DNA of 64,000 bases from a virus, in IMG/VR virus record IMGVR_UViG_3300019888_000002, positions 67,158-131,157 of that record. One strand, 5' to 3'. The translations under genes and the position numbers were made by a program. Below are positions 1,579 to 49,437 of this stretch, piece after piece. Under the pieces are notes generated by a model that saw only the letters and a list, made by a program, of their open reading frames with translations, was not told the DNA's origin and ran no database searches. Position 1 is the first letter of the stretch. Each line of letters begins with the position of its first letter.

Positions 1579-1618
1579 TTCTACCGAAACTGTACCAGAG
1601 ATGTACCTACAAACACAA
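1579..1618 (-). promoter_or_regulatory. SigA-like promoter with three 11-bp-period heptads
   Basis: TTGTGT-N18-TACAGT with TGG extension; + strand heptads ttctacc(1579), ctgtacc(1590), atgtacc(1601). Confidence 0.6.
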
Positions 1619-1621
1619 GGG

Positions 1622-2206
1622 CTAGGCACATCTCGTCGGGTAGTGGCACAGCTCCCCGGTGGCATACGCCCTGCGGTAACACCTCGAGCACAGGCTGCGG
1701 CTGTGCTCGGCCACCGTGTTCGGGGCTTCACAGAGCTTGATCCGGCGTGGACGCAGCGCCACCCCGCAGCACCGGCAACCCCATTCCTCGGGTCCGGCCC
1801 GGTGGGTCGGCGGATGAAGACGCTTGGGTTCGCCGGAAGCCTTGCGCTGAGACGGCCGCACCTTGCGATAGACCCGGCGCAACGACTCGTTGTAGTCACC
1901 GGAGGCCAGCTTCCGTTTGAGCTGATATCGGGCCTCGGTCGTCTCGGACCGATTGCCGGAGGAGGTTTCCGGGAGAGCCACCCCGGCCGCCACCAGACCG
2001 GACCAGTTGTCGGCCAGTGCATACCCGGCGCAGCGCTCCCAGATCGGGCACCCCTCACAAAGCCGATGAGCACGATCCCGGCGCTTACGCGGATCTCGAG
2101 GCAGATTGTCGGTCGTGAAGGCTTCAAGCCTGCCTCCACACAAAGAACCATCCCAAAATCCAGGGTCGAGCATCGCTGATTCCTCCTTTGTGGGGTCAGA
2201 GGTCAT
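1622..2206 (-). CDS. whiB: WhiB-family Fe-S transcription factor with extra C-terminal Cys cluster
   Basis: C-x26-CEGCPIWERC followed by GLVAAG (G[V/I]WGG variant); additional CRCC...CSRC. Confidence 0.75.
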   Translation of the reverse strand: MTSDPTKEESAMLDPGFWDGSLCGGRLEAFTTDNLPRDPRKRRDRAHRLCEGCPIWERCAGYALADNWSGLVAAGVALPETSSGNRSETTEARYQLKRKLASGDYNESLRRVYRKVRPSQRKASGEPKRLHPPTHRAGPEEWGCRCCGVALRPRRIKLCEAPNTVAEHSRSLCSRCYRRAYATGELCHYPTRCA

Positions 2207-2209
2207 CGC

Positions 2210-2479
2210 TCAGACGCGGGCTGCTGCACGTCGAGTGGATGAGCTGTACAAGAACTGCCGGTGATTCCCACGGCAGACGTGATGGAACAACAGGTCGATC
2301 AGCCAATAATGCGCCAGATCGAGCCGATCCAGCAGGGTGGGTCGAGGGACGGCGAAGACCTCGTGCGCCCAGGTCTTGTAATCCACCACCGTCGAGGAGA
2401 CAGAACCGGGAACCCGCTGGTATCCACCTGGCGAGTCCATACGGCGCTCCTCACGTCGTTGAAGAGTCCTTTCCCTCAC
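2210..2479 (-). CDS. Hypothetical protein
   Basis: ORF in operon; start uncertain. Confidence 0.45.
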   Translation of the reverse strand: MRERTLQRREERRMDSPGGYQRVPGSVSSTVVDYKTWAHEVFAVPRPTLLDRLDLAHYWLIDLLFHHVCRGNHRQFLYSSSTRRAAARV

Positions 2480-2729
2480 TTATTCCCGGTGAAACTTGCC
2501 CAGAGTGAAGTGCCTGCTCGCTCTGCCATTTACACCAACCACGCACATTGACATATCCGTAGGCTGCGGCCGAAATGATGAACCCCCACTGAGTCGTGCT
2601 GACGGCATAGACCACCCACAGCACCTGCACCCCCACCCCGATCATGAAGCCATACCAATGACGATTCGTGACCAGGTACAAACCAGATACGCCGATACCG
2701 GTGAGCACGAAACTCCAGAGTGGGTTCAC
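2451..2729 (-). CDS. Small multi-TM protein, PnuC/SWEET-like half-transporter candidate
   Basis: About three hydrophobic helices with a WYGF...QVLWVVYAV...WGF...YGYVNVRGW pattern. Confidence 0.5.
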   Translation of the reverse strand: MNPLWSFVLTGIGVSGLYLVTNRHWYGFMIGVGVQVLWVVYAVSTTQWGFIISAAAYGYVNVRGWCKWQSEQALHSGQVSPGISEGKDSSTT

Positions 2730-2896
2730 AGCTTCCCATTGACGAGCCCGGGATCACAGGTGGCCAGGGTGGCATGGATCTGGGCCTGGGCCAGAAGCTG
2801 ACGTATCGGTGTCTTGTCGTAATCCCGCTCGTACCAAGCGTTCACCTCGGCAAGAAGCTTCTCGGCCGTCTCGTAATGCTGTTGTGGAGTGCTCAC
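2726..2896 (-). CDS. Hypothetical protein
   Basis: GTG start overlapping the upstream stop, RBS AGGAG. Confidence 0.55.
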   Translation of the reverse strand: MSTPQQHYETAEKLLAEVNAWYERDYDKTPIRQLLAQAQIHATLATCDPGLVNGKL

Positions 2897-3399
2897 CACT
2901 CGACTCCTCTTTCCGCAGCGATATTGGACAGCACCCAGGTGGCGTGCCGGATTCCCTGGGCATAGCTCGAGGGATCGGAGGCCGGGTAGTTCTCCTCCAA
3001 CAAGTCGAGCCGACGAAGCAGAGCCATCAGGGTGTCTCGCGTCTGTTTCTCCTGCTCCCGGGCAGAGAGCCGAGCCCTCGGAACGATCGGCCCCGTCTCG
3101 ACCACCCACACGATGGCCTGCCGCCCACTACGCATGGGCCGACGACGAGAGGTGTCTCGAACCAACCCGAGATCTCGCAGTTCGGACCGACGAGAACGCA
3201 CGCTCTGCGGAGTTTGATACGGGGCATCGCTGCGGACATAGGCGGCGACCAATTCTTCGTCGGTCATCCCGTCGCTCGCGCGCAGGATCTCGAGTATCCG
3301 ACGTTGCCGCTCCCGCAGCCCGGTGATCGAGGCCGCCGCCTCGTGCGAGGTCGAAGGATCGGTGGTCCGTGCGGTCGCCGTGGCACCGGACAACTCCAT
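2893..3399 (-). CDS. Winged-helix DNA-binding protein
   Basis: ARTTDPSTSHEAA...GMTDEELV...SVRSRRSELRDLGLVRDT...AIVW, a common phage wHTH family; start moved to ATG 3399. Confidence 0.7.
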   Translation of the reverse strand: MELSGATATARTTDPSTSHEAAASITGLRERQRRILEILRASDGMTDEELVAAYVRSDAPYQTPQSVRSRRSELRDLGLVRDTSRRRPMRSGRQAIVWVVETGPIVPRARLSAREQEKQTRDTLMALLRRLDLLEENYPASDPSSYAQGIRHATWVLSNIAAERGVEW

Positions 3400-3671
3400 C
3401 AGCCGACCCGCTTCAGTCGCATCGGGACACGGCCGGTGTGCGGCATCGGATCGAACTGTCCGGCGCAACACCGAAGACACGGCTCGACACCGTGCGCGAC
3501 CGCGTCCCCGATCGTGGTCCAGATGTTCTCGTGCAGAGTGCGAAGCTTGTCGATCGCTTCGTCGGTGCCCCGCACATAGCCGGTGCACTCTTCGCTCAGG
3601 TGAAACCTGCGCCCGGTGCCGGTGTAGAAACACCGGGACTCGAGCAGGTCGATCACATGAACCGGTTTCAT
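3399..3671 (-). CDS. Hypothetical metal-binding protein
   Basis: FH....C and PCxxC motifs. Confidence 0.55.
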   Translation of the reverse strand: MKPVHVIDLLESRCFYTGTGRRFHLSEECTGYVRGTDEAIDKLRTLHENIWTTIGDAVAHGVEPCLRCCAGQFDPMPHTGRVPMRLKRVG

Positions 3672-3868
3672 ATCATGCCTTTCTTGGTGGGGGTTATGAC
3701 AGTTCCGTCCTCGTTCAACGACACGACAGAGGCCGAGATCATGCGGCCGTCCTCGAGATGGACCCGGGCACGTTCACCGAGATAGTCGTCGTGATAACGC
3801 TCCACTCGGTCGATCATGTCCGGCGCGATACGACCGGTGGCACTGATAAGCACGATCAACTCGGACAC
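3668..3868 (-). CDS. Hypothetical protein
   Basis: GTG start with AGGAG; 4-bp overlap with the next gene. Confidence 0.55.
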   Translation of the reverse strand: MSELIVLISATGRIAPDMIDRVERYHDDYLGERARVHLEDGRMISASVVSLNEDGTVITPTKKGMI

Positions 3869-4221
3869 TCCTGCTCCTGTCGAGCCCACACCTGCTGCAC
3901 GCTGTCCAGCTTCACCAGGTCGACCCTGTAGGTATCGCCCGCCTGATAATCGGCCGAATGCTTCCCGGTGCCCCGCATCCTGTGCTTCTCGCATCGTCGC
4001 TCCCCAGCGAACCCATGATTACGGCAATACGGGTCGGAGCCCTCTCGCTCACCGCAGGAACAGCAGTAACACGTGGTGCGCTCACACTCGACCCACGGTG
4101 TGGCCGTGACCGTCCGGCTGTTCTTCCAGCCGTACCAATCCTGGTACTCGGTCCAGGTCTGCACCCGGGTTTCCGGGTCGACGGTGACCGGCCCCTTGGA
4201 ATAGGACTCGTAGATGCCCAT
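3856..4221 (-). CDS. Cys-rich hypothetical protein
   Basis: TGATG overlap; CYCCSC...YCRNH...RCEKH. Confidence 0.55.
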   Translation of the reverse strand: MGIYESYSKGPVTVDPETRVQTWTEYQDWYGWKNSRTVTATPWVECERTTCYCCSCGEREGSDPYCRNHGFAGERRCEKHRMRGTGKHSADYQAGDTYRVDLVKLDSVQQVWARQEQECPS

Positions 4222-4655
4222 CAGGCCCTCTTCAGCTCTTCGAGAGTCTTGATCTCGGTGGTCTTGCGGTCGATCCCCTCCTGGAGAAACGCGGTACGAG
4301 AAAGACTCAGCTCGGCATCGGCGACCGTGGGCTCGAAGAGGGCGTACGCCAGATGCTTGTAACGCGCAAACTCCGACGGCGGGTAAGAATCCCACTTGTC
4401 GTCGTGCAGTTCGGTCCCGTCGGCATCCTCCCCGAAAGAATCGTTCCGATCGAAGAGCCACTTCCCGTCACACTGGTACCGATATTGCAGCTCGGTCGTG
4501 AAATAGACCCGCTCGGGTCGAGGGGAGGATTCACCGAGCACCATGACGAACTCCACGGTCACACTGGCGAATCCGGCCGAGAGCACCCGGGGAAGGTGGT
4601 ACTCGATATCGGCGAAGGCGACCTCGGTTCTCTGAGGGCCAAGAATCTCGGTCAT
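4221..4655 (-). CDS. Hypothetical protein
   Basis: First gene after a promoter cassette; AAGGAACCCCCACCG upstream of ATG. Confidence 0.7.
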   Translation of the reverse strand: MTEILGPQRTEVAFADIEYHLPRVLSAGFASVTVEFVMVLGESSPRPERVYFTTELQYRYQCDGKWLFDRNDSFGEDADGTELHDDKWDSYPPSEFARYKHLAYALFEPTVADAELSLSRTAFLQEGIDRKTTEIKTLEELKRA

Positions 4656-4680
4656 CGGTGGGGGTTCCTTACGTTGTGGG

Positions 4681-4719
4681 TTGTACCCAGAGCGTACCGG
4701 AAACGAACTAAGATTTCAT
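4681..4719 (-). promoter_or_regulatory. SigA-like promoter with tandem heptads
   Basis: -10 TACGCT; ttgtacc(4681) and gcgtacc(4692) are 11 bp apart. Confidence 0.5.
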
Positions 4720-4739
4720 AGCGACACGCCGAGACCGAA

Positions 4740-5243
4740 TCAGACGATCGGGTCTCCGTCACGACCCTCCAGCTCGTCGGACACGTACACGGCCAAGGCA
4801 TAGCTCTGCCACACGTCGGAGCGGAAGCCGTGAAACCATCCCGGAGCGGCCTTGGTCCCCTTGCCGTGGTTGGGCTGCCCCGGAGCGAACCGATCCACCA
4901 GGGCCTGGGTGACGTTGGAGTCCTTGGCCTTGGCGCTGTGGCAGAAGTGCATCTTGACGGGGCGACGATAGACGAGCCGCGCGTCTCCCCTCACACACTC
5001 CAGGAACCGACCGACCCACACGCAGGTCTCGAACACGTCCTTGCCGACCGCCATGCCGTAGGACGCCACCATCTCGATGGCGTAATGGTCGGCTTTCACC
5101 TCACCCTGAACCATCTCGCGCAGGGTGTGGTTGTCGTGCTTCCCGAACTCCAACGGCTTTCGGGTCTCGGCGTCGATCAGCGTCCAGCCGCTCTCGGTGT
5201 TGCCTGGGTCTATGGCGAGGATCGTGGTCACTCGTTGCTCCAC
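4740..5243 (-). CDS. ruvC: RuvC-like (RNase H fold) Holliday junction resolvase
   Basis: ILAIDPGNTESGW, AIE, VKMHFC..AKAKD, D.W...ALA. Confidence 0.75.
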   Translation of the reverse strand: MEQRVTTILAIDPGNTESGWTLIDAETRKPLEFGKHDNHTLREMVQGEVKADHYAIEMVASYGMAVGKDVFETCVWVGRFLECVRGDARLVYRRPVKMHFCHSAKAKDSNVTQALVDRFAPGQPNHGKGTKAAPGWFHGFRSDVWQSYALAVYVSDELEGRDGDPIV

Positions 5244-5246
5244 GGG

Positions 5247-6050
5247 TCACACGGCAATCGGCGCTCGGATGGCCTCGTGATGCTGGTAATCGAGAACGGC
5301 GACGTCTTCGAACCGATAATCAAAGATGCTGTTTCGCTTCGTGAGCTGGAGAGTGGGAAACGGGTACGGCTCCCGGGCGAGCTGCTCGGTCACCTGGTCG
5401 AAATGGTTGATGTAGATGTGACAGTCACCCCCGGACCAGATCAGATCGCCCACCTCGAGGTCGGTCTGCTGCGCCAGCATGTGCGTGAGTAGTGCATAAC
5501 TGGCGATGTTGAACGGCACGCCGAGGAACATGTCGCAGCTGCGCTGATTGATCATCAGGTCGAGCTTGCCGTTACGCACATTGCACTGGAAGGCGTAGTG
5601 GCACGGGGCCAACGCCATCTCGGGGAGATCGGTGGGGTTCCACGCCGTGACAAGATGCCGACGGCTCTCGGGGTTCGTGCGGAGGCCCTCGATGAGCACG
5701 GCGATCTGGTCGATCCCCTCCCAATCCGTGTCGTCCTGACCCCAATGACGCCACTGGAATCCGTACACCGGACCCAGCTCACCGTCTGGACTAGCCCACT
5801 CGTCCCAGATATGCACCCCGTTGTCGTTGAGATACCTGATATCCGTCAACCCGGACAGCAGCCAGATCAGCTCGTGAACGACGGCCTTGAACGCCACCTT
5901 CTTGGTGGTGATCAACGGAAATCCCTGGCTCAGGTCGTACCGCAGCTGCCGACCGAACACCCCGTAGGTGTCGACTCCGGTCCTGTTCGGCCGCAGCACC
6001 CCGTCGCACAGAATCTCGCGGAGCAGGTCCTCGTACTGATGTTCGGTCAC
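5247..6050 (-). CDS. thyA: Thymidylate synthase (ThyA type)
   Basis: [62 protein letters not shown]. Confidence 0.98.
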
Positions 6051-6301
6051 TTCGTCTCCTTCGGAGGTAGTAATGCATCGATCTGAGCCATCCATTCGCC
6101 CGATGGAGCCCACCGTTCGCCCATGATGTCCTGAAGCTTGCGGGTGAGCTGATGTGCGTCCCAGTGCTTCGTGTTCTTCAGCAGCGGTAGGAACTCCTCC
6201 CGCAACCGAGCACGCTGATAGCTATCGGAATCGGCGTTGGCAGCGCCGACGAGCATCACGAACGCCATGTGCCCTGCGAGCAACTTGGGGTCGAGAGTCA
6301 C
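6047..6301 (-). CDS. Hypothetical protein
   Basis: GTG start overlapping the upstream stop. Confidence 0.55.
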
Positions 6302-6546
6302 CGCAGCCCCCTCATTGCATGAAGTTTGCCGCAGGCCACGTGCACATAGAACCCGGAATCCAGCACTCGGCCGATCATGTCTCCGGAATCGATCTCCGTT
6401 CTGCATCGGACACAGGTGCCACCGAACTCGGCCTCGAAAGGATGCCCGATCGTCCAGTCCGGCTCGGTGTCCAGCGTCAGGCCCCGGCAATCGGCGCAAT
6501 ACGCCTTGGTCATGCCGTGTTTGCACTCGTCGTCATCGGCAGGCAT
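6298..6546 (-). CDS. Cys/His-rich hypothetical protein
   Basis: CKHG...CADC, A..GGTCVRC...H..C zinc-binding pattern. Confidence 0.6.
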   Translation of the reverse strand: MPADDDECKHGMTKAYCADCRGLTLDTEPDWTIGHPFEAEFGGTCVRCRTEIDSGDMIGRVLDSGFYVHVACGKLHAMRGLR

Positions 6547-6853
6547 GGTAAGCCGCCCCTACTGGTACATATTCGCTGCATCCCTCACACACCCGATGGC
6601 CCGGACGAACACCGTTCAAGTACATCTCGTGAGTTCGAGCCAGACTGCGAGCAGCCAGAATGCGCCCGAACGCCTGCTCCTTCTCCTCCGTGGTGGATGT
6701 CCACAGATCGAAGGACTTGTCAAGGTCCCCGGAAGCGATGAAAGGGTAAGCCCGGACCATTTCCTGCTTGTAGGCGGAATCGAAGTCGGCCGAATCGAAG
6801 TCGGCCGAATCGAAGTCAGCCGAATCGAAGTCAGCCACGCTGATCCTCGACAT
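6533..6853 (-). CDS. Hypothetical protein with N-terminal (ADFDS)4 repeat
   Basis: ORF track; C-terminal CxxC...H..C. Confidence 0.65.
   Translation of the reverse strand: MSRISVADFDSADFDSADFDSADFDSAYKQEMVRAYPFIASGDLDKSFDLWTSTTEEKEQAFGRILAARSLARTHEMYLNGVRPGHRVCEGCSEYVPVGAAYHACR
6777..6836. repeat. Tandem 15-bp repeat x4 (gaatcgaagtc[g/a]gcc)
   Basis: Directly visible; encodes ADFDS x4 on the minus strand. Confidence 0.95.
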
Positions 6854-7277
6854 ACTCGGGATGCTGATTCTTCATGTGCCGGGTCACTTGGGCGAACGTG
6901 CGATGACAACAGGGGCAGATCCCGGCAGCAATACGTTTCCTCACCTTGGTGAGCTGGCCCTTGGTGGCGGCATGAGAACGCCTCTGCGCCTCGATGGTGT
7001 TGTCCTTTTCGGCGATGATTCGATCCCGTGACTCCAGCGACCGGGACAACCGATCGGCGCGTTCACGTTCCTTCTGCGCCTGAGACTTCTCCTGATAGGA
7101 CCCCACGTGACCGTTGGGACAGTAGATGTCCTGGTGATCCGCTCGACGCTTCTGCTCGTAATCGATCGGGAAAGCGTAGGCGATCCCACACTGCCAACAG
7201 GTCTCGACATGGAACGTCTCGATGCTGGTGAAGCTAGCCACGACTCGACTCCTTTTCCTTGGTCTTCTGAGCCTCAC
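6831..7277 (-). CDS. Zinc-finger / coiled-coil phage protein
   Basis: CWQC, YCPNGH, coiled coil, CPCCHRTF..VTRHMKNQH (C2H2). Confidence 0.7.
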   Translation of the reverse strand: MRLRRPRKRSRVVASFTSIETFHVETCWQCGIAYAFPIDYEQKRRADHQDIYCPNGHVGSYQEKSQAQKERERADRLSRSLESRDRIIAEKDNTIEAQRRSHAATKGQLTKVRKRIAAGICPCCHRTFAQVTRHMKNQHPEYVEDQRG

Positions 7278-7815: not shown

Positions 7816-7831
7816 GCGATCCTCTCGTGGG

Positions 7832-7860
7832 GTGTCCCCCGATTGTACTGTCTCCGTACC
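7832..7860 (-). promoter_or_regulatory. Heptad-repeat regulatory cassette / probable promoter
   Basis: gtgtccc(7832), ttgtact(7843), ccgtacc(7854) at 11-bp period in an intergenic gap; TACAAT on the minus strand. Confidence 0.5.
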
Positions 7861-7873
7861 AGTGATTACAAGG

Positions 7874-12627: not shown

Positions 12628-12658
12628 GAGGGGGTTCCTTTGTATCGGCGAAGACTAC

Positions 12659-12696
12659 TTGTCCCCCTACTGTACCATGAATGAACCAGTTGTCTA
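12659..12696 (-). promoter_or_regulatory. SigA-like promoter with three heptads
   Basis: TAGACA-N16-TACAGT with TGG; ttgtccc(12659), ctgtacc(12670), atgaacc(12681). Confidence 0.65.
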
Positions 12697-14621: not shown

Positions 14622-14651
14622 GGTGGGGGGTTCCTTCACGGTTGTGGGGGT

Positions 14652-14670
14652 TTGTACTCATAGCGTACCA
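14652..14670 (-). promoter_or_regulatory. Extended -10 promoter with tandem heptads
   Basis: TGGTACGCT; ttgtact(14652) and gcgtacc(14663). Confidence 0.55.
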
Positions 14671-15842: not shown

Positions 15843-15863
15843 GGTGGGGGTTCCTTACGTTAG

Positions 15864-15901
15864 ATGTCCCTAGACTGTACCACAGGTACAGTTCACGTCA
15901 G
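15864..15901 (-). promoter_or_regulatory. SigA-like promoter with heptads and an 8-bp inverted repeat
   Basis: CTGACG-N16-TACAGT; atgtccc(15864)/ctgtacc(15875); palindrome actgtacc-aca-ggtacagt at 15874-15892. Confidence 0.65.
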
Positions 15902-16830: not shown

Positions 16831-16868
16831 CTGTACCTAGACTGTACCACAGGTATTGCCCCCGTCAA
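16831..16868 (-). promoter_or_regulatory. Strong SigA-like promoter with perfect tandem heptads
   Basis: TTGACG-N16-TACAGT with TGG; ctgtacc(16831)-taga-ctgtacc(16842). Confidence 0.75.
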
Positions 16869-17488: not shown

Positions 17489-17826
17489 CACGTCGTCCAC
17501 AGGAGTTGCGCGGGAAGGTAACGGCGCATCGTGGATGCGGCCAATGGTGCGGTTTCGTAGCTGCACCACAGACTGTCGCGCTTCTGATGCATGTCTCGGT
17601 CCCGGTCGATAACGACAGCAAGATCCGGCAGTGCATTCAACTGCTCGACGGTGGTGATGGTGCAGGCATCTCGGATTGCTTGCGCGATATGCCCTGCGAA
17701 GTCCAGTGCCTGTGCGCCGTGGCCTGCCGATGACTTCCAGCCACACGAGCAATCGCGACGATGAGAGTGCGGATAGAGAATGGGGTTGTACAGGTGTGCT
17801 GCGATGACGCTCGTCAGATCGCTCAC
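17488..17826 (-). CDS. Hypothetical protein
   Basis: ORF track; CSCGW...H.A pattern. Confidence 0.6.
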   Translation of the reverse strand: MSDLTSVIAAHLYNPILYPHSHRRDCSCGWKSSAGHGAQALDFAGHIAQAIRDACTITTVEQLNALPDLAVVIDRDRDMHQKRDSLWCSYETAPLAASTMRRYLPAQLLWTT

Positions 17827-18104: not shown

Positions 18105-18348
18105 GAAAGCCTCCGCAATTATGGAAGTATCGTTCCTCGTCCAACTGCTCCTGTAGACGATCTGCTCGATCTCGTTCGGCGACAGCAAGGTTGCGCAGTT
18201 GCAGCATCGGCACGCGGTAGTCACCCTCGGGGTGAGTGCATCCCATCGGTAGACCACCGTCGCAGAGACCACAGACCGCGAGCCACGGATCGAACTCGGA
18301 AAGCTGCTCGTCCGTGGTCCGAGGCCGCTCACCGGCATCGTGGGTCAT
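18088..18348 (-). CDS. Hypothetical protein
   Basis: CGLCD.G....C.H zinc motif. Confidence 0.55.
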   Translation of the reverse strand: MTHDAGERPRTTDEQLSEFDPWLAVCGLCDGGLPMGCTHPEGDYRVPMLQLRNLAVAERDRADRLQEQLDEERYFHNCGGFHAAHE

Positions 18349-21467: not shown

Positions 21468-21505
21468 TGCTACACCTATGGTACAGCATCGGTACAGGAA
21501 GTCAA
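21468..21505 (-). promoter_or_regulatory. SigA-like promoter with inverted-orientation heptads
   Basis: TTGACT-N16-TACCAT; GTAC at 21481 and 21492 (11-bp period). Confidence 0.7.
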
Positions 21506-23080: not shown

Positions 23081-23502
23081 GTGTCGCCGCTCTCTCGTAA
23101 TTCCACCGGAGAGCCTTCAACCCGGCTCCAGCCCGTGTGGTCGAACAACCACACCCCGAAGTCCTGGGTACGGTGCGGGACGAAAGACGGGTCGACGTCC
23201 TCGGTCGGGAGCACCAGGGTGGGTTCGTCCTCGAGCGGTTCGGGTTCGAGGTCCTGTTTGAGCGGCACCACGAAATGACCGTGCCGAGTGCTGCGCTGAG
23301 GTTTGTGCCCCACCGGCAGACAGCACCTCCACCCGGGAACATCGGTAAATCCACACGTCTCGGCCGGACCGTCGACCGACTTCACCTTCTTCAAGTGCCT
23401 GCCCCTCTTCTCGATGGTGGCGAAGACCCGGCCACAGGAACAATGCCAGCCGTACTTGGTCCGGGTCCCCGGAGTGTGCTCAACCATCCTCGAGTCCGTC
23501 AC
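23074..23502 (-). CDS. Zinc-finger hypothetical protein
   Basis: WHCSCG...H; CG...C.L..GH...H. Confidence 0.55.
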   Translation of the reverse strand: MTDSRMVEHTPGTRTKYGWHCSCGRVFATIEKRGRHLKKVKSVDGPAETCGFTDVPGWRCCLPVGHKPQRSTRHGHFVVPLKQDLEPEPLEDEPTLVLPTEDVDPSFVPHRTQDFGVWLFDHTGWSRVEGSPVELRESGDTC

Positions 23503-23591
23503 GGTCCATCAGATATGCAGCAGCCAGCGCACGAGGCTGACCGCCGCTCCGAGCAGCAGCAGTACGGCATGTGGGTCTATGGGGTCTCTCA

Positions 23592-26359: not shown

Positions 26360-26593
26360 TCAAATCACATCCTCCTTGCGGCCGGATGCCTCCAGCCATG
26401 TCTCGATGACGGACTTACGCCAGACAGGTCGACGGCCGATCATCTCGGGCGCAGGATCAGGAAGCAGATTGCGCTTCTTCCATTGGTACACCGTGCCGAC
26501 CTTGACGCCAGCGAGTTTGGCCACGTTGTGATAGGTCAGCAACGGGTCGGGTTGGTCGACTGGTCGTGGTTTGGAAGTGGTCTTGGCGGACAC
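26360..26593 (-). CDS. AlpA/excisionase/MerR-like HTH DNA-binding protein
   Basis: LLTYHNVAKLAGVKVGTVYQWKKRNLLPDP...GRRPVWRKSVIETW. Confidence 0.8.
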   Translation of the reverse strand: MSAKTTSKPRPVDQPDPLLTYHNVAKLAGVKVGTVYQWKKRNLLPDPAPEMIGRRPVWRKSVIETWLEASGRKEDVI

Positions 26594-26756
26594 GTTTCTC
26601 GTCTCTTTCCTGAGGATCGTTCGTTCCAGAGGACAGGGCTCCTTGTGGGGGAAGGATTGTTCTGGTGGGACTACAGATTGATGGGTGGGGTGTGCATTCC
26701 ACTGCGGACGTCTCACGGCCCGGGAGGTGGGGGTTCAGTTGTGACTCATGTCCGTA

Positions 26757-26786
26757 ACAGTACCAGAACTGTACGGTTTGTGTCCA
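26757..26786 (-). promoter_or_regulatory. SigA-like promoter with tandem GTAC heptads
   Basis: TGGACA-N18-TACTGT with TGG; GTAC at 26760 and 26771. Confidence 0.6.
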
Positions 26787-34735: not shown

Positions 34736-35113
34736 TCACCCCGTAGCGCACTCGTTCACCGGCCCCCTGTTGGACCCGGTAGCCCGGTCGTACGCTCTCA
34801 GCATCGACTTGAGCGCGGCGCTGGCGTACTGGCCGACCAAGGTGGTGTAGTGCGAGCTGAAGTGCATCTGCTTGTGTGCTTCGGCCTCGGTGTATCCCAT
34901 GAGGACGTGCAATTCGAAGGCTTGTCGTTGTCTGGGGGGAAGCTCCTCGAGCCCGACCAGCAGATCATAGAAATAGATCTGCTCCCCTTCGACGGTGATC
35001 TCCATGATCTGGTGATCCTCGACCAGGGCGGCCCAATGATAATAATGCAAGTAGACGTTTTGAAAGATCTGTAGACGTCGCTTCTCGGGATCGTCACTAA
35101 GCGTCTTCGGCAT
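34736..35113 (-). CDS. Sigma-70 region-4-like HTH protein
   Basis: LEELPPRQRQAFELHVLMGYTEAEAHKQM, a sigma r4-type helix pattern. Confidence 0.65.
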   Translation of the reverse strand: MPKTLSDDPEKRRLQIFQNVYLHYYHWAALVEDHQIMEITVEGEQIYFYDLLVGLEELPPRQRQAFELHVLMGYTEAEAHKQMHFSSHYTTLVGQYASAALKSMLRAYDRATGSNRGPVNECATG

Positions 35114-41625: not shown

Positions 41626-41646
41626 GAATCTCCTGTGGGGATGGAC

Positions 41647-41761: not shown

Positions 41762-41771
41762 TTCGAAGAAT

Positions 41772-42737
41772 CTACGACGAAGCGCCCGCAGGTTCCTTGG
41801 AACCCTTCGTCATCTGATCCCGCAACGAACTCATCCGCGTGTTGGCCGAGGACTCCACAGTCTGTGCCTCGTCGGCACCTTCGTCACTGAGCGGTGTGGT
41901 GGCCACATCGTCATTCTTCTCGTCCGATGCGCCCTCCGGGCTGCCCTTGCCCTTGTACTTGCCCAGCAGCGGCTCGCAGACCTCGGCCGTGGCCAACCGG
42001 GCGATCACCCAATCCTCGAGCGAGAGCGGCTGATCGTCGTAGACCTTGCGGACATCTTCCTCGGTGTCCAACCCGTCGATCACGTCGAGCGGCACCACCG
42101 AGTAGCTGGTCTTCTTGTCGTTGCCTTGACGCTCGATCAGGTAATCCCGATCGAAGAGCCCGTTGTTCCGACGGTTGTGGGTCATGAACATGTTCCAGAA
42201 ATTGGACAGGCCCTGCTTGATCAGGAAATACTGCCGCGCGTTCTCGACGGTCTGGGTCTTGCCTTCCTTGTCCTCGTAGGTTCGGGTGGCCGTCTTGTCC
42301 CGAACTGACATCTTGGTCCGGCCGCCCACCTTCTCCTGGGTTTCTTCCCGCAACACACACAGGCCGAGGGTGATTTCACGCCGGTACTTGGCAGGGTCGA
42401 CCACCTTCTTGGCATAGTCCCGCAACTCGATCTCGGGGTGCTCCTCGAAATAGTCCGGGATGTCCAGGCCGACCGAGGCAGGAGAGACAAAGGTACGAAC
42501 GGAATCATCATCACACTTGATGAAGTCGTACACCTCGCAGGTGATCACTTCGTCGGGCATGAACCGCACCACGTGCTCGTACTGCTCACCCTTGCCGTTC
42601 CGGTCGTCCTTCCAGACGAGCATCGGCACATAGTCCTTGGAGCCGGACGCCTTCTGCCGATCGATGGCATTCTGGACTTCATCGAAGCCTGACTTGAACT
42701 TGGCCTTGGCCTTGAGGTCCTTGATATCATCGGACAT
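41772..42737 (-). CDS. Probable single-stranded DNA-binding protein (gp32-like)
   Basis: VVRFMPD, DYLIERQGNDKKTSYSV, acidic low-complexity C-terminus; position upstream of the polymerase. Confidence 0.55.
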   Translation of the reverse strand: MSDDIKDLKAKAKFKSGFDEVQNAIDRQKASGSKDYVPMLVWKDDRNGKGEQYEHVVRFMPDEVITCEVYDFIKCDDDSVRTFVSPASVGLDIPDYFEEHPEIELRDYAKKVVDPAKYRREITLGLCVLREETQEKVGGRTKMSVRDKTATRTYEDKEGKTQTVENARQYFLIKQGLSNFWNMFMTHNRRNNGLFDRDYLIERQGNDKKTSYSVVPLDVIDGLDTEEDVRKVYDDQPLSLEDWVIARLATAEVCEPLLGKYKGKGSPEGASDEKNDDVATTPLSDEGADEAQTVESSANTRMSSLRDQMTKGSKEPAGASS

Positions 42738-42816
42738 GGGGGTTCTCTACTTTCTACTCAATCGTGCTGGGATACAAAGGGTTTCATGGAATTGTCTGGG
42801 ATGCGATGAGATGTCT

Positions 42817-42825
42817 ACCGTACCA
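42817..42825 (-). promoter_or_regulatory. Extended -10 element upstream of the putative ssb gene
   Basis: TGGTACGGT; single heptad. Confidence 0.4.
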
Positions 42826-42833
42826 CGATTGTG

Positions 42834-43622: not shown

Positions 43623-43631
43623 GGACGGCTC

Positions 43632-43841: not shown

Positions 43842-44943
43842 CCGTTGCCTTCCATTCGGCCATGGCCATGTAGCCGGACCTCGCTCGAGAAATCACATCC
43901 ATGAGCTGATCCCTGTCTCTGTAGTCTCCCAGGTCTTTGCCCTTCTCGGCGGGGACGACCTCGACAACGGTGTGACGGTACAACGCCTCGGTGAGTCGAC
44001 GTGCCGCCAGTTGTCCGGCCGGGTCGTCGTCCATGAAGATGGTCAGCTTGGCAAACGGCCGGAGCAGAGCTACCTGCTCTTCCGGCATCTTGGCCCCGAA
44101 GGTGGCGACCACCCCCGCCAACGGGTCTCGATCATCGAGCATCAGGGTCTCGGCCATGGCCACCGACATCGGGGACTCGACCACGATCAGCTCCTCCTTG
44201 CCCCGCTCGATCACCCGCTGAAGGTTGTAGAGCGTGGAGAACTTGGGAAATCCTTTACTGTTCTTGTACTTCTCGATCCGGCCGGTCTCAGGGTTCGGCG
44301 GGGTCCGAGGCCAGCGAGGATCGGTCAGGCAACGCTTCTGCCAACCCACCAGCTTCCCGTCCGGGGTCCAATGCGGGAAGGTGACCCGGACGGCCACCGG
44401 GTCGTACCCGATCTGGAGCCGAGACGCGGCCTCGAGCGAGATGCCCCGGTCGGCGAGGAACGGATGCATGTTGGCCCAGCCCTTGAGCACCCGATCGGAG
44501 TAGACAGGGTAGCTCTCCCGCTTCGGGGTGGCATCGGCGAAGACATTCTTCAACTCGTCGGCGAAGGACAGCTGACGCTCCGAGGATGCCTCTCCTACCA
44601 GCTCCGAGAGCAGCGGCATGATGTCGGCGAGATGGGTCTTGTTCTCCATCCGCAGGATGAACTGAAGAATGTCGCCACCCGGCCACGTGGAGTAGGTCCG
44701 ACACAAATAGAGCTTGGATTCGACATTGGCCAGCGCGCTGGGGTTTTCGTCACCGTTGGCATGATGCGGGTCCACCCCGTCCAGCAGGCAGGAGTGCACG
44801 ATCTCGTCACCCTCGAGGCTCTGATTGCGGGCTCCGTAGTGATCGAGCACGACGGCCACATCGATCTGCCGAAGGTACTGCTTGTAGAGCCTGCGCGCGT
44901 TCTCCCGCTCCTCGAGGATGCCGAGTCCCCGGATCAGTTTCAC
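43735..44943 (-). CDS. dnaG: DnaG-like DNA primase (TOPRIM)
   Basis: Zn-region HSC..H.NGD.NPS, F...RGI, RVTFPH, VGWQKR, KYKNS, LYN, VVESPMS, DDDPAG, KDLGD; GTG start overlaps the dnaB stop. Confidence 0.9.
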   Translation of the reverse strand: MKLIRGLGILEERENARRLYKQYLRQIDVAVVLDHYGARNQSLEGDEIVHSCLLDGVDPHHANGDENPSALANVESKLYLCRTYSTWPGGDILQFILRMENKTHLADIMPLLSELVGEASSERQLSFADELKNVFADATPKRESYPVYSDRVLKGWANMHPFLADRGISLEAASRLQIGYDPVAVRVTFPHWTPDGKLVGWQKRCLTDPRWPRTPPNPETGRIEKYKNSKGFPKFSTLYNLQRVIERGKEELIVVESPMSVAMAETLMLDDRDPLAGVVATFGAKMPEEQVALLRPFAKLTIFMDDDPAGQLAARRLTEALYRHTVVEVVPAEKGKDLGDYRDRDQLMDVISRARSGYMAMAEWKATDERTPGRQSVPYGRASVPRARTGTARVAHRHHRSS

Positions 44944-46214
44944 GAGACGCGCTCCTGCGTGTACTCCCGGATCACCGACAGCTCGGAGCGCTCGTTGAGA
45001 TGCCACGCCAGAAGCCAGGAATTCTCGTCACTACGACGAGCCTTGAGAACATCCATGACCATCGTCCGGTTGGCACGCATTTCCTTGGTCCGGCGCAACG
45101 ACAGAGCCAGGTCGACGGTGCGCTCGATATCCGCACTGTTGGCGATCTGCCACGCCCCGAGCGCTTCCCCCTTGGCCGAGGCTGCGGCGGCCGTACGGTT
45201 GAACTGGACGGCCATGAGGCAGGACAGCTTACTGGTACTGCCCCGGTCGATCTCGTCCTTCAGGTCGAAGATGATCTCGGCGTGCTTCTCGGTGGTGTCC
45301 ATGCGGTACCGGGTGGGCTTGGGGTCCATGTGTGAGAGCTGATCGATGATCAGATAATCGCCGCCGAGTTGTCGGCAGCGACCCACCAGGTCGACCACGG
45401 TGCGCTCACCCCGCTCCGGTTTCTCCACATAGATCGGACCCAACTCACCGAGGTCCCGCTGAGCCGCCCTGTGCCGGTCGTATTCGGAGACGGAAAGCTG
45501 GCCCCGGGTGAACCGGCCGTACCCCACTCCGGAAGCGAAACAGTCGATCCGGTCCTCGAACTCCCCGATGGCCTGCTCCAGAGTGAAGATCACCGGAGTG
45601 AACCCGGCCTGGCGAGCCTTGAGCGCGGCATTGGTCAGGCTGAAACTCTTCCCCACTCCGGTGTAGGCCGCGACGATGCCCAGCTCCCCGGGCAACAACC
45701 CCCCGGTGTGCGAGTCGACCTCATCGAAACCCAGAGTCATGCCCCGGTCGAGCGCGCCGGACGCGAGACGCTGTTCGTAGCGGCGCTGCCGGTCGATCAC
45801 GGTGGACGCCATGTCGGACCGATTATGCCGGGGTGAAACCGCCTCCTTGGCCTCCCAGGACCTCGAGTGCAGCTGATTGAGCGCACCGATCGGGTTGTCC
45901 TTGAGTGCCTCGGCCACCCCGATCAACATCTCCTGCGCGTTGTTGCGCACGTACCTCTTCTGAAGCTCCTCGACCAACCAGGTCAGAGCCTCCTCACCGG
46001 ACTCGACCCGGTAGCCGGGGAACTCGGCGACCAGCACGGTCTCCGGTGGAACCTGTTCCATCTCGTTGCGATGCCAGTAGGCAGTGATGAACTCGAACAC
46101 CTGCTGATTCATCGGGTCCTCGAAAACCTGGGCTCGCAGCCCCATGTCCCAGACCCGAGACATGTTCTCGACGGTCGACAGGTGAGCCAACAAGGACTTC
46201 TCGAAAGATGCCAT
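44940..46214 (-). CDS. dnaB: DnaB-like replicative helicase
   Basis: GLLPGELGIVAAYTGVGKS, FTLEQ, IIDQL, AVQFNR, IANSADIERTVD, LKARR. Confidence 0.92.
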   Translation of the reverse strand: MASFEKSLLAHLSTVENMSRVWDMGLRAQVFEDPMNQQVFEFITAYWHRNEMEQVPPETVLVAEFPGYRVESGEEALTWLVEELQKRYVRNNAQEMLIGVAEALKDNPIGALNQLHSRSWEAKEAVSPRHNRSDMASTVIDRQRRYEQRLASGALDRGMTLGFDEVDSHTGGLLPGELGIVAAYTGVGKSFSLTNAALKARQAGFTPVIFTLEQAIGEFEDRIDCFASGVGYGRFTRGQLSVSEYDRHRAAQRDLGELGPIYVEKPERGERTVVDLVGRCRQLGGDYLIIDQLSHMDPKPTRYRMDTTEKHAEIIFDLKDEIDRGSTSKLSCLMAVQFNRTAAAASAKGEALGAWQIANSADIERTVDLALSLRRTKEMRANRTMVMDVLKARRSDENSWLLAWHLNERSELSVIREYTQERVS

Positions 46215-46231
46215 GTGGGGGTTTTATCCTT

Positions 46232-47026
46232 TCAGAAGATCGGGCGCACAAGCCCTTTCCTCAGCTCCACCAGAAGCCTCTCTGTGGACTGAGGACGGAA
46301 GTCCGACCCCAGCATCTCGTACCGAAGCGAGCGTTCCCACAGCAACGACAGGATGGCCCCACCGTAGCCGTTGCTCAGCTCCTTGATCGTCATGTTCGTG
46401 GTGAGGAAGGTGACCTTGCCGTCCTGCACCCGTCGCCGCAGCACGTCATCGAAGGTGGTCTCCGACAGATTGATCTTGGTTTTCATATCCCGGCCGAGGT
46501 CGTCCAACAAGAGCACATCGGTCCCGATGATCTTGGTCTGGAAGTACCGCTGCTCCTCGGGCTCCCGCCATCCGGCCGTGAACATCTCGACCATGTGCGC
46601 AAAAGTCGTGGAATAACAGTTGTAGCCGAGCTTGATCAGGTCTTTGAGCAGCAAGGTGATCGAGAACGTCTTCCCCACCCCGTAGTCACCGTAGAGGACC
46701 AACCCGAGCCCCCTGTCGACGTAGTTCATGTGGTTCCTGAGGTAGTCGTCCATCCAGAGCCGGACCTCCGGGTCCCCCTCGAAATCATCCCAACTGAGCT
46801 GCTGGTAGGTGACCCCGATCCCGGCCGCGAGATAGTGCTTGTGCAGCTGAAGCTGAAGCTGACAGTCACACTTCTGCATGAGGCCATCCCAGAAATATGT
46901 GCGCTCGGTGTGGCAGGTGGGGCAGTACTCCCTGAAATCGGGTTTCAGCTTGGGATGCTGCCGGTAGAGCCTTTCGGCTTCTCGATCGGAAAGAAAGTGG
47001 TAACGGAGCTGTTCGGCCTCATCCAT
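46232..47026 (-). CDS. DnaC/IstB-like AAA+ helicase loader
   Basis: GLVLYGDYGVGKT, LLLDDLG, RRR......FLTTN. Confidence 0.85.
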   Translation of the reverse strand: MDEAEQLRYHFLSDREAERLYRQHPKLKPDFREYCPTCHTERTYFWDGLMQKCDCQLQLQLHKHYLAAGIGVTYQQLSWDDFEGDPEVRLWMDDYLRNHMNYVDRGLGLVLYGDYGVGKTFSITLLLKDLIKLGYNCYSTTFAHMVEMFTAGWREPEEQRYFQTKIIGTDVLLLDDLGRDMKTKINLSETTFDDVLRRRVQDGKVTFLTTNMTIKELSNGYGGAILSLLWERSLRYEMLGSDFRPQSTERLLVELRKGLVRPIF

Positions 47027-47447
47027 GGAGGAACTCGCTCAGGGAGACGAAGCCACGCATCGCCTCCTGTTCGGTCTTGACCTGGGCTCGGTCGGTGTTG
47101 ACATAGTCCTGGACCTCGGAATAGAGCTGATCCGTCCACCACTTACGTTCCTTCTGGAACGAGAAGAACCCGATCGGTTTCCCGTCGTGTCGGCCCTCAT
47201 ACCGGAAGATCACCCACTTGAGGATCTGCCCGGCACCCTTCTGGCCGTACACCTTCTGAAGCTGAGTCATCACGGCACGTTCCCGGTGTCCGGCCCCGTC
47301 CACCCGAAGGTCGATATCGAGAACCTGATGCATGGCTTCCTTGAGATAGGACACCAGCCCCAGGGGGGTCACCTGCTCCACCCGCTGACCGATAATCTGT
47401 TCTGCCGCATCGAGTTCGGTAAAACTCACCGTCGAATCTCCTTGCAT
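47019..47447 (-). CDS. Hypothetical protein (possible replication initiation partner)
   Basis: Directly upstream of the loader; AACCCCC before ATG. Confidence 0.55.
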   Translation of the reverse strand: MQGDSTVSFTELDAAEQIIGQRVEQVTPLGLVSYLKEAMHQVLDIDLRVDGAGHRERAVMTQLQKVYGQKGAGQILKWVIFRYEGRHDGKPIGFFSFQKERKWWTDQLYSEVQDYVNTDRAQVKTEQEAMRGFVSLSEFLHG

Positions 47448-47609
47448 GGGGGTTGGTTCGGGACCACCGACCTCTGCCGGTGGCCCCTTCGTCCGAGCAT
47501 AGGACTGATCTTGAAGATATTGGGGGATCTACGTGCGTGGCAGGTGCTTCCCGAGCCGGTCTTGCACCAGGCGAGAGGGGCTCGGCCGAGACACCCTCCC
47601 TGTCTCATA

Positions 47610-47939
47610 TCACCGGGAACCGGCGTCCTTACGGGCGGCGTCGATCCGGTCGCACTCGGAGAGAATGCGCCCGAAACCGTCGATCACTTGCACTCTGGGT
47701 AACCAACCCCGAGCATCGGCCACCAAGAGAAGGTCTCGAAGCCCCTCCAGTGTGTAGCGGGGGTAACCATAGGTGTTCTCCGGAGAACGGGGCTCGATCG
47801 GGGTACCGTCCGGCCGGACCAGATCACTCTGCTGGTGCCGTCGCCGGAGCCATTCCCGGGAAACCCCGATCAGCCCGGCCGCTTCCCTGGTCGAGTAAGA
47901 CAACTCGCTCGGCAGGGAAAGCAACACGGACCGGAGCAC
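47610..47939 (-). CDS. MerR/excisionase-like HTH protein
   Basis: YSTREAAGLIGVSREWLRRR...YPRYTLEGL. Confidence 0.7.
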   Translation of the reverse strand: MLRSVLLSLPSELSYSTREAAGLIGVSREWLRRRHQQSDLVRPDGTPIEPRSPENTYGYPRYTLEGLRDLLLVADARGWLPRVQVIDGFGRILSECDRIDAARKDAGSR

Positions 47940-47942
47940 GGG

Positions 47943-48656
47943 TCAACCTTTCTTCTTGGTGTCGTCCTCGGGGTCGTAGTCCCGGGGCACGAACCTCGGT
48001 GTCTTGGGCTTACCCGGCACGATGGCCTTCTTGAGCAGTTCCATCTTGGAGGGGTCCTCCTGGATCAGCCGCATCAACTTCTCCTCGGAGAACACGGTCT
48101 CGGTGTGCGCAGGAACAACCACCTCGGGAACGTCCACTACATCGAATACCCGGTTTGCCTCCGGCCCAAGCAGACGAACCAGTTCCTCGATGTTGAGCTG
48201 CGGGTCGGGCTGACCGGCACCCTCACGCTTGAACACTCGACGCATCTCGGGAATCTTGAGAGCACCGTTCTCACCGGGGCCGACGGTCTTGTCGAGATGA
48301 GCGAAAACCAGAGTCTTGATCGCCTCCCGGCGAGTGTCGAGGAACTCGGTGATGTCACGCATCCGGTCGTGCTCGGCCATCAGGGAAACAGCCTCGGAAT
48401 GCTCCAGCTCCCGGGGGTCGGTCGTCTCGATCGTGACGATCTTGTCCACGTACTCGGTCATCATGGTCTCGACCTTGGTCAAGGTCTCCAGGTCGAGCGA
48501 GGCGACAGCCGTGGCCCATTCCTTCTTGCGAGCGGCAACGGTCCTACGCCGAGTGGCGTCGACCGACGCAGTAGCCACCTCGTTGATCGTGCTCTGAAGC
48601 TGAGAGGCGTACTGAGCCTCGAGATTAGCGAGGAAGGACGTGACCAGATCGGTCAT
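47943..48656 (-). CDS. Hypothetical helical protein
   Basis: AAAGGAACCTCCGTC before ATG; first gene after a promoter. Confidence 0.7.
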   Translation of the reverse strand: MTDLVTSFLANLEAQYASQLQSTINEVATASVDATRRRTVAARKKEWATAVASLDLETLTKVETMMTEYVDKIVTIETTDPRELEHSEAVSLMAEHDRMRDITEFLDTRREAIKTLVFAHLDKTVGPGENGALKIPEMRRVFKREGAGQPDPQLNIEELVRLLGPEANRVFDVVDVPEVVVPAHTETVFSEEKLMRLIQEDPSKMELLKKAIVPGKPKTPRFVPRDYDPEDDTKKKG

Positions 48657-48704
48657 GACGGAGGTTCCTTTCGGGGTGTGGGGGTTCGGTCTTGCGATTT
48701 CCCC

Positions 48705-48734
48705 ACTGTACCAGATCTGAGCCAGAATTGTCTA
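48705..48734 (-). promoter_or_regulatory. SigA-like promoter
   Basis: TAGACA-N18-TACAGT with TGG extension. Confidence 0.65.
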
Positions 48735-48968
48735 GACCACACAAATATGCGAGTCGACCAGGGCCTGAGCGTCCCGACCGGAAAGTGTTGCCCCCGTATA
48801 GATCACCTCATGACACCGGAGACATTCAAGATCGGGAGAGATCTCTCCGACTTCGCCCCCGACTTCGGCCGAGGGTTCCTCATATTCTTCGGGGGTACAG
48901 GCCGGACAGGTGTGTCTGTGCAAAGAGAAATGTACTTCCTGGCCGAACACGACCACGTCCACTTGCAT
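48732..48968 (-). CDS. Small Cys-containing protein
   Basis: GAGGAGAG RBS; CPAC...CLRC. Confidence 0.5.
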   Translation of the reverse strand: MQVDVVVFGQEVHFSLHRHTCPACTPEEYEEPSAEVGGEVGEISPDLECLRCHEVIYTGATLSGRDAQALVDSHICVV

Positions 48969-48978
48969 CTGACTCTCC

Positions 48979-49371
48979 TCAGTTTGCGTCCACAGCGGCC
49001 TCGGCAAGATGCTGAAGCTCGATCTGCTTCATCCGCACAGCATCGGCGAAGACCTTCATCTCGAGATTGGTCAGCCCCTCCGACATCTGGACTCCATGCA
49101 CCCAATGCATCGAGATCAGAAGAAGAAGCTGACCGTAGTACTGCATCTCGATCCAACCGAACTCGGTTTCGACCATGGGCAGACCCAACCGAATCGCCTC
49201 GACCGGCTGAAGTTGCCTGCCATGCACGGCCTGCGCCTCCTCCATCATCTTGTCGGCCGTCTCGCACCAGAAGACCATCACCTTGATGAAGGATTTCCCG
49301 ATGTCTCCCTGTTCCTCCAGCATCCGCTGCTGTGTACTCCACGAAACATCGTCCAGAACCTGCACTGACAT
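48979..49371 (-). CDS. Hypothetical protein
   Basis: GAGGGAGAGG RBS. Confidence 0.65.
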   Translation of the reverse strand: MSVQVLDDVSWSTQQRMLEEQGDIGKSFIKVMVFWCETADKMMEEAQAVHGRQLQPVEAIRLGLPMVETEFGWIEMQYYGQLLLLISMHWVHGVQMSEGLTNLEMKVFADAVRMKQIELQHLAEAAVDAN

Positions 49372-49378
49372 CCTCTCC

Positions 49379-49437
49379 CTCTACCAGAACTGTACCCACT
49401 ACTCTGAGACTAACATCGGTTCGAGCAGGGGAGTTGG
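49379..49437. promoter_or_regulatory. Divergent promoter region with heptad pair
   Basis: ctctacc(49379)-agaa-ctgtacc(49390); minus-strand TACAGT; lies between divergent genes. Confidence 0.5.

Follow-up and report, generated by a model that had tools for sequence, protein, structure and literature searches.

What reads the GTAC repeats that stand before so many gene groups of this phage? The stretch analysed here (the window, 64,000 nucleotides (nt)) comprises bases 67158-131157 of a phage genome of 131,157 base pairs (bp), which is held in IMG/VR as a record with direct terminal repeats (IMGVR_UViG_3300019888_000002; hereafter G000). Its intergenic gaps carry short GTAC-centred units every 11 bp, for which the original prediction proposed promoters overlaid by the sites of a single regulator. 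To our knowledge, little is known about how large lytic actinobacterial phages time their genes. The evidence below points to extended -10 promoters embedded in exactly phased direct repeats, and the repeats may be read by a 77-amino-acid (77-aa) winged-helix protein encoded in the window.

G000 has a G+C content of 61%, and our own, crude gene call places 171 of its 181 genes on the minus strand and counts 11% of its length as intergenic. Its DnaE-type polymerase shares 49% identity with gp154 of Rhodococcus phage E3, with weaker matches in Finch, Gordonia phage Stormageddon and Mycobacterium phages Phrappuccino and Myrna. Given the E3-like DnaE and the lack of any nucleotide-level match in the phage collection (megablast), G000 is considered to be an undescribed large actinophage of the E3 type. 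A syntenic relative, G001 (a 103.6-kb IMG/VR record, 69% complete), shares 65-75% nucleotide identity with it in core genes. E3, Finch, Stormageddon, Phrappuccino and Myrna, whose hosts (Rhodococcus, Gordonia, Mycobacterium) are mycolata, served as the comparison set without the motif.

The pair GTAC-N7-GTAC occurs seven times in the window, as compared to 0.21 expected from dinucleotide shuffles, and none of 100 shuffles reached seven. The whole of G000 holds 21 instances, all 21 of which fall between genes in our own gene call, and the reversed control gave 0. GTAC alone is not enriched in G000 (480 observed, 463 expected). Position-weight-matrix iteration from raw matches drifted to coding repeats or blurred the 11-bp registers, and anchoring on TGGTAC..T was used instead. 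In this phase test the anchor was TGGTAC..T alone, neighbouring units were ignored, and GTACA with at most one mismatch was sought at offsets from -30 to +30. GTACA stood exactly 11 bp downstream of the anchor at 5 of 9 sites in the window, 14 of 20 in G000 and 19 of 21 in G001, and exactly 11 bp upstream at 3 of 9, 6 of 20 and 15 of 21, respectively. At every other offset its count was below three. When the flanks were shuffled with the -10 preserved, the GTACA means were 0.15-0.38 and the maxima 3-4. The unit is the asymmetric GGTACA, and among the 57 GTAC-N7-GTAC pairs of G000 and G001 none mixes GGTACA with TGTACC. With all 57 pairs direct and GTACA at exactly +11 and -11, the 11-bp direct repeats of the original prediction are genuine.

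About 26 of the 81 intergenic gaps of at least 45 bp carry the motif, clustered before small-gene operons between 45 and 95 kb of G000. Promoters of this family number about 30 in G000, 12 of them in the window, and the arrays have two to five units. A second (late) promoter word was searched for in the motif-free gaps and nothing clear was found. The sites in the window, together with the gene of the candidate reader, are as follows.

1579-1607, minus strand: three-unit array GGTACA / TGGTACAGT / GGTAGA; -10 at 1589-1594, predicted +1 at 1582; heads gene 1098-1541.
4681-4698, minus strand: two-unit array with CGGTACGCT as -10 and GGTACA at +1; -10 at 4691-4696, +1 at 4684; heads gene 4221-4655.
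7832-7860, minus strand: three-unit array TGGTACGG / AGTACAAT (-10) / GGGACA; -10 at 7842-7847, +1 at 7835.
12659-12687, minus strand: TGGTACAGT as -10 and the variant GGGACA at +1; -10 at 12669-12674, +1 at 12662; -35 TAGACA, spacer of 16 nt.
14652-14669, minus strand: two-unit array with TGGTACGCT as -10 and AGTACA at +1; -10 at 14662-14667, +1 at 14655.
15864-15892, minus strand: TGGTACAGT as -10 and GGGACA at +1; -10 at 15874-15879, +1 at 15867; -35 CTGACG.
16831-16848, minus strand: the site nearest to the consensus, TTGACG, 16 nt, TGTGGTACAGT, cta, GGTACA; -10 at 16841-16846, +1 at 16834.
21468-21496, minus strand: wholly flipped array TGTACC / TGTACCAT (-10) / TGTAGC; -35 TTGACT, spacer of 16 nt; -10 at 21478-21483, predicted +1 at about 21471.
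26747-26775, minus strand: three-unit array CGTACAGT / TGGTACTGT / GGACAT, about 157 nt upstream of the helix-turn-helix (HTH) gene.
26360-26593, minus strand: the HTH gene, for a 77-aa stand-alone MerR-like winged helix (HTH_17; BldC/excisionase type), candidate array binder.
42817-42825, minus strand: -10 unit only, TGGTACGGT; heads gene 41772-42737 of the replication block.
48705-48713, minus strand: -10 unit only, TGGTACAGT; heads the DUF7242 gene 47943-48656.
49379-49397, minus strand: two-unit array with GGGTACAGT as -10 and GGTAGA at +1; heads the Tad4-like gene 48979-49365.

Heptads are thus present at all 12 positions listed earlier for the window; the positions hold, and some of the units prove to be one mismatch away from the core (GTCC at 7832, 12659 and 15864, GTAG at 1579 and 49379).

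Read in gene orientation, these promoters consist of a weak -35, TGTGGTACAGT, three variable bases and rGTACA at the predicted +1. TGTGGTACAGT is TGn followed by TACAGT, an extended -10, and by the usual 7-nt rule the T and A of rGTACA fall at -1 and +1. An additional GTACA unit lies 11 bp upstream, within the spacer, in about one third of the G000 promoters and in most of those of G001. The unit centres are therefore at about -22, -11 and +1, and the arrays reach from about -24 to +5; the earlier proposal of one unit as the -10 and its neighbour at the predicted start is in accord with this layout. On the gene strand there are 20 TGGTAC..T sites in G000 and 21 in G001, and TGGTAC accounts for 21 of 23 intergenic TGnTAnnnT matches, bearing out that promoters of the sigma-A type with an extended -10 head the minus-strand operons. 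T-15, G-14, T-12, A-11 and T-7 are invariant in both genomes, being fixed by the anchor, while T-17 and G-16 are invariant in G001 only. The -35 words are TTGCGN, TTGACN or TAGACN (TTGnnn/TAGnnn), mostly with a spacer of 16 nt. The hexamers that had been described as good, TTGACG, TTGACT, TAGACA and CTGACG, do occur at 16-nt spacers, but overall the signal is only weakly present, with a mean best score of 3.3/6 in G000 and 2.9/6 in G001 as compared to 2.3/6 at random positions. Extended -10 promoters commonly have a weak -35.

The leader from promoter to start codon measures 17-73 nt and ends with a strong ribosome-binding block; the HTH gene, with about 157 nt, is the exception. In G001, a motif promoter precedes a tRNA-Met gene with a leader of only 5 nt (locus L121, 15138-15230). 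The signals therefore serve transcription rather than translation, and the predicted start would be the A within the downstream GTACA. ARAGORN found no tRNA genes in the window. Taken together, the sequence features make it highly probable that the sites are extended -10 promoters of the sigma-A type, used by the host primary sigma factor.

The arrays have a narrow distribution. Pattern scans of IMG/VR returned mostly single chance matches and many matches in one record only, G001, which has 36 GTAC-N7-GTAC pairs, many of them overlapping as triplets of the form GGTACAGTTGT-GGTACA[G/C]Tnnn-GGTACAGG. No such pair was found in the genomes of E3, Stormageddon, Phrappuccino and Myrna, and none of the five in Finch has flanks of the GGTACA type. 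A DnaE-based locus search in IMG/VR found no relatives. The extended -10 promoters of E3 read TGCTATAGT and have no phased units. One of them, before the DUF7242 gene, corresponds to the window promoter at 48706, and the G001 counterpart (14025) is a two-unit array. From the TATAGT of E3 and the TACAGT of G000 and G001, it appears that this lineage swapped the one for the other and gained the flanking units. The flanks of the units cannot be aligned between promoters, indicating that the conservation of the units reflects selection and not recent copying.

Several features suggest that the arrays are more than promoters. In three cases (21468 in the window, one other in G000 and one in G001) the entire array points the other way with respect to transcription while remaining in phase on a valid -10. 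Such flips would fit a protein that reads direct repeats, and polymerase contacts alone would not explain them. In the +1 unit, G-2, C+2 and A+3 are conserved as strongly as the matching bases of the -10 unit, and the T at the sixth, -7-equivalent position, which a true -10 needs, is absent in 21 of 21 cases in G001. Since the +1 unit is absent from 48706 in G000 and present at the corresponding promoter in G001 (14025), it is dispensable for the promoter itself. RNA polymerase makes no sequence-specific reading of the spacer in which the -22 unit lies, and this favours an additional reader. In G001 the array of the HTH gene is the longest, with four to five units, and extends over the -35. 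On these grounds, we consider it moderately probable that some protein reads the repeats.

Which protein could this be? A Pfam scan of the 92 window proteins gave Sigma70_r4_2 and HTH_17 as the only families of a DNA-binding type among the 25 of 39 matched families that were listed. The HTH_17 match belongs to the 77-aa protein (26360-26593) and scores 21.3 bits, below the curated cut-off of 27. The PHROG families that it matches are annotated as DNA-binding protein / excisionase and transcriptional regulator, and a profile built from 88 homologs matches BldC (6AMA, E = 1e-8; 6AMK) and an AlpA-family excisionase. The AlphaFold2 (AF2) model has three helices and a wing (mean predicted local distance difference test, pLDDT, 82.8), and fold comparison ranks BldC chains first, ahead of MerR-family winged HTH domains and the RdfS excisionase; the sequence identity to BldC is 26-30%. 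By its modelled fold, the protein is a stand-alone MerR-like winged helix of the BldC/excisionase type. A HMMER search collected 390 relatives, many of which are single chains with the domain repeated in tandem, two to five times. Among these multi-copy homologs (P0007-P0094) are chains of 125 aa with two, 188 aa with three and 330 aa with five copies; tandem-domain homologs would be covalent versions of a head-to-tail filament.

The distribution of the protein follows that of the arrays in the genomes compared. G001 encodes an ortholog with 61% identity, in which the recognition-helix stretch GTVYxWKKR is kept, and none was found in E3, Finch, Stormageddon, Phrappuccino or Myrna. In both G000 and G001 the HTH gene lies behind an unusually rich array. 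Homologs in the wider phage collection are only distant (35-47% identity) and occur in unrelated phages. Homologs P0003-P0006 are 57-70% identical, and P0002 lies on a 138.8-kb public record; no other close relatives with usable DNA were obtained from a word-indexed protein search, IMG/VR, metagenome contigs or genome contigs. Three IMG/VR homologs with 44% identity have no phased repeats and are too remote to carry weight. BldC forms head-to-tail multimers on direct repeats that vary in number and may run either way with respect to the gene (PMC5859096), and on long sites its protomers are one DNA turn apart (PMC11963761). Variable unit number, head-to-tail order, one-turn period and either orientation together make the DNA pattern that this class is known to read. 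The 77-aa protein, behind its own array and with a BldC/excisionase-type fold, would thus be the best of the binders put forward in the original prediction. The HTH protein at 47610-47939, also put forward, has no match in the motif-bearing G001. We also tried the sigma region-4 protein of the window as reader and rejected it, as it is conserved in phages that lack the motif (E3, Finch, Phrappuccino and Cluster C phages). The identification of the 77-aa protein as the array reader is a tentative one, with the balance leaning slightly against it.

Our proposal for how such a system would work is as follows. Polymerase carrying the host primary sigma factor would use the extended -10 TGTGGTACAGT with its weak -35. 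Over it would lie an operator of GGTACA units, head-to-tail every 11 bp, in two to five copies centred near -22, -11 and +1; one array extends further upstream. The -10 hexamer would be shaped as TACAGT, where E3 has TATAGT, so as to double as an operator unit. One 77-aa protomer per unit would give a short filament along one face of the DNA. The protein would itself be made from an array promoter, and its accumulation would turn down the array promoters, its own included. A filament that covers the -10 and the start site would most likely repress; this direction of the effect is suggested by the array position only, and activation is the alternative. Promoters with a -10 unit only (42818 and 48706, in the replication block) would be less sensitive or escape. 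As the two promoters of that block carry the -10 unit only, the earlier view of a coordinate control is weak for the replication block. The full statement, a sigma-A promoter overlaid by a GGTACA operator that the 77-aa protein reads, seems to us close to an even proposition, just short of it. Its extension, in which filaments of two to five protomers at about 30 promoters would form a graded genome-wide shut-off or timing switch with unit number setting the sensitivity of each operon, is more speculative, and we regard it as possible rather than probable.

A number of observations weigh against this proposal. All arrays contain a valid -10 (TAnnnT), so operator and promoter roles are inseparable by sequence alone; the orientation argument is based on three flipped arrays; and T-1/A+1 by itself matches the usual start-site preference of RNA polymerase. 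The Pfam score of the 77-aa protein is sub-threshold. The motif is present in two genomes only, and the co-occurrence of protein and motif amounts to two genomes versus five. About 20 other proteins share the pattern of occurrence in G000 and G001 only, although those scanned in the window have no Pfam DNA-binding match, and E3 has another open frame with weak HTH_17 likeness. Moreover, BldC units are 9 bp, AT-rich and partly shape-read, whereas here the spacing is 11 bp and the core is specific and GC-balanced.

Could the promoters suffice, with all three units read by the host RNA polymerase or inherited by promoter duplication and no dedicated regulator? The downstream GTACA would then provide an optimal start context, and the upstream unit would be a relic or an alternative -10 that creates a second, overlapping promoter. 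This reading gains from the valid TAnnnT within every array, from the pyrimidine-purine start rule of bacterial RNA polymerase, which T-1/A+1 matches, and from the upstream unit of G001, often TACAGT and usable as a -10; extended -10 boxes resembling TGnGnTAcaaT are moreover typical of Corynebacteriales. However, the upstream unit is often without T at the -7-equivalent position (TACATC, TACGGA, TACATA), the downstream unit of G001 has it in 0 of 21 cases, and G-2, C+2 and A+3 have no known polymerase contact of such strength. Wholly flipped arrays retain the direct-repeat relation, the spacers and leaders between units are unconserved, so recent duplication is no explanation, and E3, the nearest characterised relative, uses plain TGCTATAGT promoters. 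We therefore judge promoters alone to be an unlikely explanation that nevertheless deserves serious weight. If the units were instead the operator of another phage protein, the reader might be the 168-aa winged HTH protein at 2893-3399 or a small protein without a recognised domain. The former, another binder of the original prediction, matches PHROG families annotated as DNA-binding protein / transcriptional regulator and has a 45%-identical ortholog in G001; in addition, the proteins common to G000 and G001 only number about 20, and small ribbon-helix-helix proteins escape Pfam. Yet the 168-aa protein has a weak match in E3 too and so is not specific to the motif, nor is it linked to direct-repeat binding; the Pfam matches listed offer only Sigma70_r4_2 and HTH_17 as DNA-binding types, and the sigma region-4 protein is conserved in motif-less phages. 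Such a reader is quite improbable.

A regulator from outside the phage also has to be considered, namely a host protein of the OmpR/PhoB family (PhoP- or MtrA-like) that binds the 7 + 4 repeats and couples early phage transcription to a host signal. In its ACAG core the unit is similar to the half-sites of actinobacterial PhoP and MtrA. The 11-bp head-to-tail period with a 4-bp spacer is the geometry of the PHO box (PMC11825685). This family had been invoked at the outset, but PF00486 (Trans_reg_C) gave 0 matches in six frames of the phage genome at E <= 1, with controls matching, leaving the phage without a Trans_reg_C domain. Activators of this family bind on or upstream of the -35, and their known sites replace it and do not cover the -10 and +1 (PMC11825685), whereas the arrays span about -24 to +5. 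A conserved host regulator would also be expected in wider use, but the motif is missing from the five related mycolata phages, and we rate this explanation as very improbable. Finally, the downstream -10-like unit might recapture sigma in a promoter-proximal pause and so load an antiterminator or time expression. The geometry at lambda PR' is close to that of a TA-containing, -10-like word 11 bp past the -10. Nevertheless, the key T at the -7-equivalent position is systematically missing, the upstream unit, the flipped arrays and the array of four to five units are left unexplained, and about 30 promoters would be unusually many for such a device, which makes a sigma-dependent pause extremely improbable.

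Beyond the arrays themselves, further observations concern the promoters and their leaders. The perfect inverted repeat ACTGTACC-TGT-GGTACAGT at 15874-15892 overlaps the -10 of the 15864 promoter, which is the sole case of an inverted GTAC unit, 9 bp upstream. Behind many promoters of the window, on the minus strand, the block GAAAGGAACCCCC lies 1-6 nt 5' of the start codon of the first gene (for example 1545-1557, 4659-4671, 12631-12643, 14626-14640 and 15846-15858). GGAACCCCC occurs 15 times on the gene strand of G000, with a start codon at most 8 nt away in 14 of the 15. Within GAAAGGAACCCCC only GAAAGGA pairs with the 16S 3' end, and the run of C is an extra start-associated signal that recalls the start-associated sequences of Cluster K mycobacteriophages. 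The G000 promoters at 45-66 kb share another conserved leader word, CACAGAGCAGGACCC. In G001, transcripts of loci L123-L125 would start with ACAGGGUCAGAGAGRCCC (for example at 46575-46592, 56868-56885 and 78825-78842). Starting 3-4 nt from the 5' end, their leader would fold into a 5-bp stem capped by an AGAGA loop, and the stem has the compensatory variants GGGAC/GTCCC and CCGAC/GTCGG; this hairpin is likely a 5' stabiliser.

As for the genes, the one behind the 49379 promoter (48979-49365, minus strand) encodes a Tad4-type Thoeris inhibitor (Pfam E = 1.8e-17), and another window protein has an Acb2/Tad1 hairpin domain (Pfam E = 2.7e-13); anti-defence genes are therefore among the motif-driven operons. 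The 125-aa protein at 34736-35113 (minus strand) comprises little beyond sigma-70 region 4 (Sigma70_r4_2, 29 bits) and is conserved as E3 gp160, Finch gp84 and Phrappuccino gp130, and also in Cluster C mycobacteriophages, making it a candidate late-gene factor for this group of myoviruses. Between 17500 and 24340 the window has a run of long gaps free of genes and motifs, such as 17501-17822, 18105-18347 and 23272-23591 by the crude gene call, which may contain small genes or RNAs that this call missed.

The arrays present a clean, testable cis-code, in which about 30 promoters share a 6-bp unit, an exact 11-bp phase, a variable unit number and one candidate protein; the structural class of that protein (BldC/Xis) otherwise follows loose target rules. 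If the proposal holds, a BldC-type filament would for the first time be seen to run a dispersed phage regulon, and a -10 box would have been shaped to work as an operator too. Promoters and repressor would then also make up a compact, tunable set for hosts such as Rhodococcus, Gordonia or Mycobacterium. If RNA polymerase alone reads the repeats, actinobacterial transcription would seem to involve contacts in the spacer and at the start site that have gone unrecognised. Neither dispersed phage operators (stoperators) nor BldC/Xis filaments are new in themselves. The literature searched contained no phased array fused to the -10 at some 30 promoters of a lytic-type actinophage; the literal motif gave only unrelated primer matches, and a survey of Rhodococcus phages does not mention it.

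Rhodococcus phage E3 has the same promoter class, TGn plus TAnnnT, including one at the corresponding DUF7242 position, but it reads TGCTATAGT, with only about a dozen such promoters and no phased flanking units. The PHO boxes of OmpR/PhoB proteins resemble the arrays in their direct repeats of 7 + 4 bp, bound by winged helices head-to-tail, sometimes as tandem dimers (PMC11825685); they need a Trans_reg_C protein, which the phage lacks, and unlike the arrays they lie at the -35 or upstream of it. The stoperators of Cluster A mycobacteriophages and Cluster CA Rhodococcus phages are likewise short asymmetric sites in about 25-30 copies per genome, in one orientation relative to transcription and with one phage repressor as reader (PMC13313380). 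As compared to the G000 arrays, however, they are single sites of 13-14 bp, mostly outside promoters, in temperate phages with an immunity repressor.

On the protein side, the 77-aa protein is a small HTH_17/MerR-like phage protein, as are Gp36 of the lytic mycobacteriophage D29 and the Xis/RDF proteins (lambda Xis, L5/Pukovnik Xis, RdfS). These oligomerise on direct repeats, and Gp36 is a MerR-like repressor of phage genes in a lytic actinophage that requires two direct repeats (PMC12266134). Gp36 nevertheless has one known site, AGGCGGC-N13-AGGCGGC with a 20-bp period, and not about 30 dispersed, promoter-embedded arrays, and Xis proteins act at attachment sites. The closest parallel in form is Streptomyces BldC (6AMA/6AMK), which, like the 77-aa protein, is a small stand-alone MerR-like winged helix without a dimerisation coil, and whose sites, like the G000 arrays, are variable direct repeats in either direction, with about one turn per unit, at many promoters. 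The two differ in that BldC is a cellular, developmental protein with 9-bp, AT-rich sites (AATTnnnnC) that are largely shape-read, whereas the 77-aa protein comes from a lytic-type phage in which the unit is GGTACA, repeated every 11 bp and fused to the -10.

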